Shown: positions 26,666 through 30,077, numbered from the whole stretch's first letter. The stretch is 63,664 nt of DNA, filler included, from Dugesia japonica (GCA_001938525.1; 6 parts of 6 records of this genome joined end to end with filler, not necessarily neighbours in it); one strand, 5' to 3'. Notes: generated from the letters alone by a model not told the origin. Numbers and translations are program-made.

Positions 26666-27131
26666 AACCCCGAATTTGGAAGATTTAATCACAAAAAAAT
26701 CACTTCTTAGCTTCAAAATTTTAATTACACTTGTGACAAGCATAATTATATCGGAATATTTATCTGGAAAGGAGAGAATTCACGAATCGACTCACGAATA
26801 ATCGTCAACTATCCAAAAGAAAATCAAATTTACCGGAATACCATTGAGTAAAATTCTAATTATTTTGGTCTTGATTAATCTTGTCCCAAAGAAAGTTAAT
26901 TAGTCCCGGCAGAAATTCGTTNNNNNNCCAAGTGTTAAGCCGATCAACAATCGAATCCTTTGTGAAACCTGTTGCAGAGATTTTACAGAAATATTACAAA
27001 GTAAATTATTATTTTTTAATTGTGTAAAAGTGGTATAATTATTAACGATGAATATCATTTATCTTAATAAAATTTGTTCATATTAAAAAAAAACGTATAT
27101 TATTATTTTTTGTTTTGATAACTAATAAATC

Positions 27132-27345
27132 ATGAGTCATTGTGAGATTAATCCCGTTCACCCTAGGAATCCCTTGAAATTATCGATTATTAAGAAAGTA
27201 ACCACTTTTCCTTTCTATGCACCAATAATACGATGTACGTAACTATGGTAATTCTAAAACAGTTAGATTCCAGAATTTAAACGGGGTTTAATCTCCTCCC
27301 ATAATTCTACCAACCACGCCTTGACCGGAGCATAATAATAAAATA
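27132..27345 (+). pseudogene. Cassette ORF1 (decayed), copy 1
   Basis: MSHCEINPVHPRNPLKLSII aligns with copy-2 MNDKRWNPLSPGHSLKLVS (NP..P...LKL); AATAAA near 27337. Confidence 0.4.
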
Positions 27346-27394
27346 ATCAATTAAGAAAACCATTTCCAATTATTTATTTAAGAACATTAAGAAA

Positions 27395-28320
27395 TTACAA
27401 CCCACTGCAGTTGATTCCAATTAAATCATGGAGAGATGGCAATCAAATAATTTCCAAAAATAACAGTAATCCGCTCTGATCTATTAAAATCTCCTTGATT
27501 ATAGTGGCAGCCAAATTTGTGTGACTAGACTGTATAAGAGTGGAAAATCTTTCTTTTCGTTGAGTCTGTACGTTATACAGAAGTTTTTCTCTTATTTAAC
27601 CTGTAAAAATCGCCAAACATCACTAAGCTTGAACAGTTGAGATTCCTATCATTAGTAGTGGTGTGACTAATTGATATTATCTACTTTAGTCAGATTACCT
27701 GCCTATACACACATATATGAAATTAAACCAGTAAGCACACACTCCAATAAGTGAGACCAAGATACTCCGTTTAAACAATATCACTAAGCAACCATAACAG
27801 GCAGAAATTCATAATTAGAAAGAAATTAAAAATAATATTAATTCTCACTTTTGTGCTTTTGTTATAAGTTTTGTTGATTTTACTGATGAACATTAATGCT
27901 ATAACGGGTATAATAACCAGAGTGGCAGGAATTTGGCCACTAATAGTAATAATAGCGTTTTGGGGAAATAGGTGTCCACTTGTTAGAGTAATTCGGTGAG
28001 TTGAATAAAAAATTGGGCTGATTACCATTCCGAAATAAGATTGGTAATACTATCAGATGCGACACCCACGATATGGTCATGCGTTCATGGGCCATAACCG
28101 GTATCTTTATCACGAATATTATTATGTAAAGAAAATTATTTTGATACATACTTTAGTGGTGATAGCCACTATCATTTTATACTAGAATTAACATTATCCT
28201 CACAACCAGGTTGCGATAATCCTAGGTCATGATTCCCCTTTGATAACTACCTTCCTATGATATGACACCCATCAAATAACAAGCTGTTATAATAATTTGC
28301 TCCGGGGAATTAAGTCAGCC
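27395..28320 (-). pseudogene. Antisense multi-pass membrane protein pseudogene inside element copy 1
   Basis: About 7-8 hydrophobic segments across frameshifts (e.g. ISWVSHLIVLPILF.MVISPIFY, IITISGQIPATLVIIPVIALMFI, INIIFNFFLIMNFCLLWLL, SILVSLIGVCAYWFNFIYVCIG). Minus-strand AATAAA follows the stop. Confidence 0.5.
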
Positions 28321-28357
28321 GGAAGAAAACGTAACTAACCATTTTCTCCTTTAGCTC

Positions 28358-28537
28358 ATGCCAACCGAATTAGATCATGCATTGCGTTGGATAAAAAAGC
28401 ACCGCCAGACTAGCCGGCTCAAACAGTTGCTAGGCCACTTTCTCACCAAGGGAAAAATTGAACACCCGGACGAGACGGACCTGTGCTGTCTCGCCGAGAT
28501 GTTCCACTTGGAAAGGAAAATAGATCGGGATGAGTGA
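28358..28537 (+). CDS. Cassette ORF2, 59 aa (MPTELDHALRWIKKHRQTSRLKQLL...GKIEHPDETDLCCLAE), unknown function
   Basis: ACTAAC branch point and ttttctcctttag acceptor upstream; homologous to 38104-38307 (GKIEHPDETDLSCLAE). Confidence 0.7.
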   Translation: MPTELDHALRWIKKHRQTSRLKQLLGHFLTKGKIEHPDETDLCCLAEMFHLERKIDRDE

Positions 28538-28672
28538 TGACAATTATTTAATGATAATTATCTGATAAAATGATTTTTTTAAAATAAAATTCTGTATAGT
28601 GTGGCATTTAAGTGTTTCCTGNATTTATATAATGTGCTAATTGAGTTTACTATTATTTCGTCATTCTTAGAA

Positions 28673-29020
28673 ATGGAATCAATATGGGAGCGAGTCTTGG
28701 ATAGGCGAACCCGTCGAATAATTTTCCAACGGCACCACAATGCCTACACTCGAGATGCCGGGATCCTGGTAGATCGATCGAATCTACATCCCGTCGAAGC
28801 AGATGTGACTCGTATTCAGGACTATGGAAAGCAACTAAACTATCGCCAGTGGAGTGGTCCGGAGCGTCGCCACGCCACTCCATTCCGGTAACTACCTCCA
28901 GCTCCAACACCGGTAGTTCAAGCCTTTATAGCTAATATGCTTTGTGGCGTTAGAGAACCGTCCCTGGTGGCGGATGTGGAAAATACAGTTCTCCCTGATA
29001 CTACCACTCCCGATTCGTGA
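28673..29020 (+). pseudogene. Cassette ORF3, ~115 aa with one internal stop (28889), unknown function
   Basis: Acceptor ttcttag|; MESIWERVLDRRTRRIIF...PVEADVTRIQ...W.GP.R.H.TPF...VQAFIANML..VREP conserved with copy 2; AATAAA at 29055. Confidence 0.7.
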
Positions 29021-29211
29021 TTTTACTCATAATCATAAAATTTGTGTTTCTTTGAATAAATAAGTGTCTTAAACAGTGTTAATATGCTCTTTAGCCCTTG
29101 GGAGGATTACTTTTAATATTGGTATTTGGTGTTTTTATGTTTTGAGTAGAGTTGAACAGATATTAGAGGATTAATCAGAGAGTCGATAACTCTTATGATA
29201 TTTTCTTTTAG

Positions 29212-29570
29212 TGCATTCATCATTAAATCGTCCCCCAGCTCCAACCAAGAAAATCNGAGANACTAGCGAGGACCGCNAAATGACGTGGGACCTCTACCGA
29301 CTCGCCAAACGACGTTGGGAGGCAGAAGTGGCCACTGCGAATAGTAAAGTCCTCCGTTATAAGAAGAAATGTGTTCTTTTTAGGAATGAAGCGGAGGCCT
29401 CCCATTTACAGGAGCGCACTTGGAAAAAACAAGTAGAATCTTTTTCAGAGATCATCCGGTCCAGCCATGACCAAGAAAATAAACTGGTTAATGACAATTT
29501 GATTTTCCGAGAGAAAATCCCCCTCGAACCGCTAATGATCGACAAAGGTACTCAGACGAGTCGCTCATAG
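29212..29570 (+). CDS. Cassette ORF4 exon (begins ag|TG): coiled-coil protein with a C-terminal DKGTQT motif
   Basis: Open frame HSSLNR.PAPTKK...TWDLYRLAKRRWE...ENKLVND...PLEPLMIDKGTQTSRS; homologous to 38989-39339. Confidence 0.75.
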
Positions 29571-29694
29571 CTTAATATTGCATAATGGATTGAATTAGTA
29601 AATTATTTAATTGTATGAAAATATTTTCTTTGTTATTTGTTTTTCCCGCGTTGTAGCTTAGGTGTTCATTAAATTGATTATACTTTTTCTTTAG

Positions 29695-30077
29695 TGCCTC
29701 GAATCACGTTTCCTACCAGTCTAAGAAAGTGCCACCGCATCTTACGCCGTCTGTTATTAGAGCGCCACGTAAAACGCAAAGCATACCAAGCTCTTCTTAA
29801 GCATCTTGACCAAAGGAACCAACTCATAAAAAAATTGGATTTGGTATTCCGTAAGCAAAACGACTTGGCAATCCAAACCAAAGCCCTAGAGGCTGATACC
29901 AGGAAGTTACTATTACGAAAGATAGATTTTTTAAAGCAGTACATAGCGGATCTCTCCAGACAGATTGGGAATCCGGCCTGGATTCATTGGAACGATGACG
30001 ACGATGTCTCCGCCTTCAATTTTACAATTGACGACCCCGAGCAATGGCTAGACCCTAGCGTATTAAATGAGCTGTAA
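29695..30077 (+). CDS. Cassette ORF5 exon (begins ag|TG): basic region, coiled coil and acidic/aromatic tail
   Basis: Intact 127-codon frame; homologous to 39466-39849 with many third-position changes; AATAAA at 30088. Confidence 0.78.

Follow-up and report, generated by a model that had tools for sequence, protein, structure and literature searches.

A candidate solo long terminal repeat of Dugesia japonica with internal genes and putative start codons built by splicing

Introduction

How can a protein be started when the conserved beginning of its reading frame holds no start codon? The question is raised by an element present twice in a stretch of Dugesia japonica DNA (GCA_001938525.1), hereafter the window, which comprises 63,664 nucleotides, filler included, from six records of the genome joined end to end. 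The two copies, A (26009..30322, + strand, 4314 bp) and B (36751..40093, + strand, 3343 bp, decayed), contain short open reading frames (ORFs), named ORF1 to ORF5, of which ORF4 and ORF5 lack a conserved start codon. A preliminary description of the window proposed that a single leader without ATG is spliced alternatively to each ORF and that, for ORF4 and ORF5, the last A of the leader followed by the TG of the exon creates the initiator. We consider such a leader-built A/TG start of ORF4 and ORF5 probable, given the comparison of the two copies presented below.

Start codons of ORF4 and ORF5

In copy A, ORF4 extends over 29212..29570 (+ strand, 118 codons, three N) and ORF5 over 29695..30077 (+ strand, 126 codons, no Met), both counted from an AG/TG boundary. 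Their counterparts lie within 38989..39849 (+ strand) of copy B, where ORF4 runs from AG/TG at 38989, with frameshifts and a stop at 39134, and ORF5 from AG/TG at 39466, with stops at 39582 and 39751 and one frameshift. As had been described, neither ORF has an ATG at its conserved start, and AG/TGC stands there in both copies (29212, 29695, 38989 and 39466), i.e., TG follows the acceptor in four of four cases. Across the window, TG is found after acceptor-like sites at 9 of 160 places. The first Met of ORF4 (29280) is not kept in copy B.

Compared between the copies in the proposed frames, the ratio of nonsynonymous to synonymous differences (pN/pS) is 0.24-0.40 in all eight blocks, against 0.85-4.26 in shifted frames, and to judge from these ratios the ORFs are almost certainly genuine genes under purifying selection. 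The first 12 codons past AG/TG present pN/pS values of 0.18 and 0.26 (Fisher p 0.005 and 0.003). Given the selected frame begins two bases past the acceptor (phase 1), one upstream base is required to complete its first codon. Met fits this split codon better than Leu or Val, because TG is present in four of four cases, whereas only 4 of 39 conserved Leu and Val codons have G as their third base in both copies (conserved codons in general keep their third base in 91 of 214). The proposal that the leader's A and the exon's TG form the initiator is thus backed by a phase-1 start that needs one upstream base, yet a phase-1 site in ORF1 could also feed the AG/TG boundaries.

The preliminary description assigned an acceptor of its own, a pyrimidine tract and AG, to each of ORF2 to ORF5. 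This is the case for all four in copy A, and in part for copy B. A filter requiring YAG with 10 of 13 pyrimidines retained nine sites in copy A, including all four named acceptors, and six in copy B, including those of ORF3 and ORF4. The ORF5 acceptor of copy B fails the filter, which leaves three of the four ORF4 and ORF5 sites passing; a pyrimidine tract and YAG precede all four. The ORF2 acceptor of copy B (38113) has neither pyrimidine tract nor branch motif. In copy A, the perfect ACTAAC branch motif reported at 28334 is indeed present, followed by a pyrimidine tract and AG before ORF2 (28334..28354, + strand). At 29693-29696, no difference was found among 40 of the 300 difference rows from aligned contigs.

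Leader and donor sites

The copy A leader extends over 26690..27000 (+ strand), its 5' end being placed from the TATA box and its last base being A. It is followed by the donor-like GTAAAT (AAA/GTAAAT, 27001..27006, + strand), the best match to the donor consensus in 26670-27130. In copy B, the segment 37420..37694 (+ strand) holds a leader ending in A and the donor GTAAGT (TTA/GTAAGT) at 37689, the best match in 37400-37880. That both leaders lack ATG up to this A and are then followed by a GT donor was confirmed: no ATG occurs in 26690-27000 (305 non-N letters, a count qualified by the six N inside it) or in 37420-37688 (269 letters), and each leader is the longest ATG-free stretch on the + strand of its element. 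Dinucleotide shuffles contained no ATG in 1 of 2000 cases for copy A (mean 4.1) and in 46 of 2000 for copy B (mean 3.0). Among segments of the same length from the whole window, 86 of 5392 (copy A length) and 131 of 5485 (copy B length) are free of ATG. An A precedes donor-like sites at 57 of 157 places in the window. Donors inside ORF2 to ORF4 were rejected, as no site is strong in both copies: none of the 19 GT positions aligned in both within 28355-29700 scores at least 5 in each.

Under the proposed mechanism, RNA polymerase II would start about 30 nt past the TATA box, and the leader donor (27001 or 37689) would be joined to one acceptor per mRNA. The last A of the leader and the TG of the exon would then make up the initiator of ORF4 and that of ORF5, and ORF2 and ORF3 would use their own ATG, 2-4 nt past the acceptor. 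Unspliced RNA, the presumed template for replication, would have no AUG route to ORF4 or ORF5. The result would be a retrovirus-like accessory cassette inside a long terminal repeat (LTR), its roles being read from the shape of the sequence.

The comparison of the DNA backs the acceptors to which one leader would be spliced, but ORF1 offers a rival donor. ORF4 and ORF5 could be second coding exons, the T of a phase-1 T/GT in ORF1 being spliced to AG/TG to give a Leu codon and, with it, ORF1-ORF4 and ORF1-ORF5 fusions. Phase-1 donor-like T/GTA sites exist in both copies where the similarity of ORF1 ends: T/GTACGT at 27235 in copy A, whose ORF1 (27132..27242, + strand, 36 codons) is weakly like that of copy B at 37871, and T/GTAAGA at 37962 in copy B, whose ORF1 (37871..37967, + strand) starts at AG/T ATG and has stops at 37928 and 37940. 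Retroviral regulators with two exons, which are made likewise, may be an analogous case. However, ORF1 is only weakly similar between the copies (score 31, shuffle p 0.01), AG is absent from copy A between 27031 and the ATG of ORF1, and the GT sits in a Cys codon, so that it could be kept for the protein. Moreover, fusion to ORF1 would not lead one to expect TG at both acceptors, given the background frequencies of TG after acceptors and of a kept G in Leu and Val codons. We therefore deem this explanation unlikely, and the leader-built start remains the preferred one.

ORF2 and ORF3

ORF2 of copy A (28358..28537, + strand) encodes 59 amino acids from its own ATG and presents a pN/pS of 0.29 against copy B. 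ORF3 of copy A (28673..29020, + strand) has its own ATG 2 nt past the acceptor at 28671, and spans 115 codons, interrupted by a stop at 28889. Both are found in 38116..38716 (+ strand) of copy B, ORF2 at 38116-38307 and ORF3 at 38408-38716, with stops at 38423 and 38627. According to the preliminary description each ORF has its own stop, which was only partly sustained. The ORF3 stop at 28889 (38627 in copy B) is probably premature, because conserved in-frame codons continue past it (pN/pS 0.36) to stops at 29018 and 38714, and the ORFs of copy B carry stops and frameshifts. ORF3 is hence probably broken in both copies, as the alignment suggests. Its stops lie at neighbouring codons in A and B, and conservation extends over about 28 further codons beyond them; the stops may reflect separate decay or programmed read-through. 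No paralogy was found among ORF1 to ORF5.

Nature of the element

Copy A begins with TGTTGGG and ends with CCCAACA, and is flanked by the target-site duplication (TSD) AATG (26005..26008 on the left and 30323-30326 on the right, + strand). Copy B reads TATTGGGG...CCCCAACA, with TSD ATAT. Inverted ends of 7-9 bp and 4-bp TSDs are thus present in two of two copies, although the second base of copy B differs from TG (TG/TA...CA). Several features that define a solo LTR are found, i.e., TG...CA ends with short inverted repeats, a TSD of 4-6 bp and a dispersed multicopy family. With its termini, TSD and repeated family, copy A is a likely solo LTR, and each copy is very probably a giant solo LTR with ORFs inside, as far as can be told from sequence. 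Its parent is likely a gypsy-type retrotransposon. The LTR-like nature of the unit was no part of the preliminary description.

The order of elements is four CCAAT-type boxes and a TATA box, the leader, the ORFs, a poly(A) signal and a hairpin-rich tail. A promoter like that of the unique 3' (U3) part of an LTR lies at 26464..26663 (+ strand), with CCAAT at 26464, 26533 and 26621, TCAAT at 26584 and TATAAAA at 26657; the spacing in copy B is alike. The candidate poly(A) signal AATAAA stands 3' of ORF5 (30088..30093, + strand), and AATAGA occupies the aligned site of copy B. Also, both copies have AATAAA a short way 3' of the leader donor (27066, 27082 and 27124; 37741 and 37839). If one of these were used, the ORFs would fall into the unique 5' (U5) part, behind a short repeated (R) part; chance in AT-rich DNA could also account for these sites.

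The tail, which resembles U5 (30130..30322, + strand; 39905-40093 in copy B), is conserved between the copies. Over its approximately 190 nt, 6 of 41 predicted pairs differ between the copies at both of their bases, and its folding yielded z = -1.5 in each copy. An Rfam scan of 24000-42000, tail included, produced no match. The tail is a candidate packaging, priming or 3'-end signal. In sequencing run X14, contig depth over 30158-30277 is very high, and RNA reads from relatives fall on the last stem.

Seven of 24 listed runs were aligned (X2, X3, X4, X5, X7, X8 and X14), on copy A and with 6-26% of each raw run. Copy A was aligned in two parts (25900-29255 and 29278-30450), with N at 29256-29277, so a joint 27000-29695 is detectable only as a loose end. 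In run X2, 1534 contigs align to 25900-29255, with a summed depth within the element of 36-11393 against about 8 per contig, which is not a copy number. The depth is 3379-11393 over 26012-26683, 36-265 over 26684-28363, 244-452 over ORF2 and ORF3, and 1027 at the start of ORF4. In two mappings of copy A, 1534 and 418 contigs aligned, most of them 90-95% alike or less. The X2 depth hence indicates a dispersed family with diverged subfamilies. The U3-like part (26012-26683) has an X2 contig depth 10-100 times that of the leader, which suggests many related LTRs with a common promoter and different leaders.

A stretch of about 1.1 kb, 27250..28330 (no strand assigned), is present in copy A only. 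It is rich in stops in six frames, has hydrophobic stretches on both strands and a low X2 depth, and gave no Pfam match in six frames. It is perhaps a decayed extra gene.

A different account, under which the splicing model could still hold, denies that the element is an LTR and takes it for a complete non-autonomous element, or a virus remnant, with short inverted ends. Neither an internal region, nor a primer binding site, nor a polypurine tract was seen adjoining either copy, and no third copy exists in the window. In addition, an LTR of 3.3-4.3 kb would be a long one and would presumably need a 3.6-kb strong-stop copy. Yet the TG...CA ends with mere 7-9-bp inverted repeats, the 4-bp TSDs and the U3-R-U5-like order do not suit such an element. 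Flatworm solo LTRs typically have 4-bp TSDs (PMC4558846), and giant gypsy elements are described in planarians, as are Ogre LTRs of 1.9-6.5 kb (PMC6431247), i.e., LTRs of up to 6.5 kb exist. The non-LTR account is accordingly quite unlikely, and the solo LTR is retained.

RNA evidence and points against the model

Besides the donor-like sites of ORF1, the missing internal region and the ORF2 acceptor of copy B, several results weigh against a solo LTR whose leader is spliced to its ORFs. The base-by-base comparison covers two copies only (A and B). The last base of the leader, although A in two of two copies, is weak by itself (a chance of about 13%), and the leader is poorly conserved: of the 15 letters preceding the donor, the copies share 3. 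The protein roles discussed in the next section depend on motifs and single-sequence folds, and no homologue was found.

The preliminary description suggested a search for the predicted junctions, which was carried out for copy A. No junction read was found in the five poly(A) or cDNA runs (X3, X4, X5, X7 and X8), and splicing is neither demonstrated nor refuted by this outcome. Over 25900-29255, X3, X4 and X7 contributed 5, 7 and 1 reads (13 in total), all partial and none with a joint. Over 29278-30450, at 80% likeness, 61 reads were retrieved (48 from X5, 10 from X8 and 3 from X3), none of them at least 95% alike, and RNA depth is 0 over 29678-30077. The 61 reads cluster on those stretches of ORF4 and that tail stem in which A and B are most alike, and their first mates fall on both strands. 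This pattern indicates that relatives, and not copy A, are present at a low level in the RNA libraries; copy A looks silent. Of the five joints seen in X2 contigs, none coincides with a predicted intron, and an intron-less retrocopy was hence not observed. Finally, three of the eight listed X14 contigs cross the acceptor at 29695 unspliced, in a run whose kind is guessed and may be DNA.

These unspliced contigs, together with an in-frame GTG that spans the putative acceptor in four of four cases, would also agree with ORF4 and ORF5 being started at that GTG on an unspliced or separately started RNA, no codon being built. Because of these GTG codons, production of both proteins from spliced RNA only is no more than a possibility. 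However, a pyrimidine tract and YAG precede all four sites (three of which pass the filter), scanning from the leader would be blocked at one of the many AUGs upstream, a second promoter was not noted, and the X14 contigs may come from DNA; we hold this explanation to be highly improbable. Trans-splicing at these acceptors of a flatworm spliced leader, which can provide an AUG (PMC5832876), was rejected and is hardly credible as the source of the start, since the added AUG would read in phase 0, out of frame at all four acceptors and terminated after 4 and 9 codons in either copy, whereas the selected frame is in phase 1.

Taken as a whole, i.e., a solo LTR, one leader and spliced start codons, the model is one towards which the sequence evidence leans, and we hold it with modest confidence.

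Predicted proteins

The structural model of ORF4, computed from a single sequence for the part from 29280 on, presents one helix at residues 2-79 (mean pLDDT, the predicted local distance difference test score, 85), followed by a low-confidence tail. The end of this tail reads DKGTQTS in copy A and DKCSQTS in copy B, which agree with six and five of the seven positions, respectively, of the LC8 motif. This motif, [D/S]KX[T/V/I]Q[T/V][D/E], occurs in disordered segments that adjoin coiled coils (PMC3078936). ORF4 is thus likely a coiled-coil protein that would be dimerised by the host hub LC8. The Piwi silencing complex of the fly is reportedly dimerised by LC8, on which ground ORF4 might, speculatively, interact with silencing.

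The single-sequence model of ORF5 presents a helix at residues 7-90 (mean pLDDT 75). The first 20 residues carry a net charge of +6 and residues 101-120 one of -7, and the acidic tail is aromatic. We take this layout to be that of a basic-zipper activator, and ORF5 is likely a basic-helix transactivator, if the predicted features are a guide.

No homologue of ORF5 was found in the protein collections searched, which returned one PDB row with E 0.69 and one PHROG row with E 0.006. For ORF4 there was likewise none, the Atlas rows at 0.91, with low recognition, being weak. Pfam returned nothing above cut-off for ORF2 to ORF5, and the DNA pattern of the ORF4 start had no match in metagenome and viral contigs.

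Comparison with known systems

Complex retroviruses and adenoviruses use one leader, several acceptors and small regulatory proteins. The sag gene of mouse mammary tumour virus (MMTV) and the nef gene of human immunodeficiency virus (HIV) overlap the LTR at U3, and it is the 3' LTR from which they are read. In the present element, in contrast, each LTR contains four to five ORFs, all of them 3' of its TATA box.

The split start codon itself has a precedent. In Drosophila errantiviruses of the springer subclade, the main ORF of env is spliced to the AU of a start codon, as mapped experimentally (bioRxiv 10.1101/2023.08.03.551782). As in the present case, this is a gene of an LTR retroelement with a start codon split by an intron, there as AU/G. 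Unlike the present case, it is one gene downstream of pol, whereas here A/TG would serve two genes with a common donor, inside the LTR and known from DNA alone. Nor are ORF4 and ORF5 F-type envelopes downstream of pol, as they have 118 and 126 codons and lie inside a bounded repeat.

Burro and GYPSM1 of planarians are likewise giant LTR elements with accessory ORFs, the internal region reaching up to 25 kb and encoding a giant polyprotein, but the extra functions described for Burro reside in the internal polyprotein or in an upstream accessory ORF, and here the ORFs are within the LTR (PMC6431247). The ta-TRIM solo LTRs of Echinococcus share the 4-bp TSDs, and present U3/R-to-R/U5 transcripts and cis-splicing (PMC4558846). 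They are, however, sources of non-coding RNA and promoters for downstream host genes, and the accessible parts of that paper describe no selected ORF cassette of their own. Literature searches found no description of the cassette, although the 2018 planarian genome paper and the Burro1 function study may describe such LTRs.

Neighbouring sequences

The base composition of the window is AT-rich and of eukaryotic type. Separate contigs are joined by artificial 100-nt N-linkers at 11357, 21255, 32170, 41691 and 55309, the linker containing a 12-nt palindrome, and the genomic neighbourhood is not preserved across them. Copies A and B were considered as a tandem pair, which is ruled out because they are on different contigs, with the linker at 32170 between them.

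Decayed remnants of reverse transcriptase, RNase H and integrase (gypsy-type) and of a DDE transposase were observed at 32842-33974 (+ strand), 43975-45748 (- strand), 20920-21306 (- strand) and 50225-50575 (+ strand). These are on other contigs or loci, and no tie to copies A and B was seen. Exons of host type are present at 22631-23239 and 41801-42136, with a trypsin-like protease and a kringle domain.

Implications

Our broadest proposal is that the LTR is a self-contained, alternatively spliced operon with one leader, four or five acceptors and two regulators whose start codons arise by splicing only, and that every solo LTR keeps this cassette. This is put forward tentatively, with chances that we place slightly below even. 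The LC8-binding-like motif predicted in ORF4 is open to experiment. If the model is true, splice-built start codons would hide genes from ORF finders and would allow switching between an RNA that serves as template and an mRNA for the regulators: unspliced genomic RNA would never yield the ORF4 and ORF5 regulators, and the cassette would survive the loss of the retrotransposon body. Solo LTRs, usually deemed non-coding leftovers, would then be dispersed protein-coding units, and the retrotransposons of a simple animal would have evolved gene control in the style of complex retroviruses inside the LTR.

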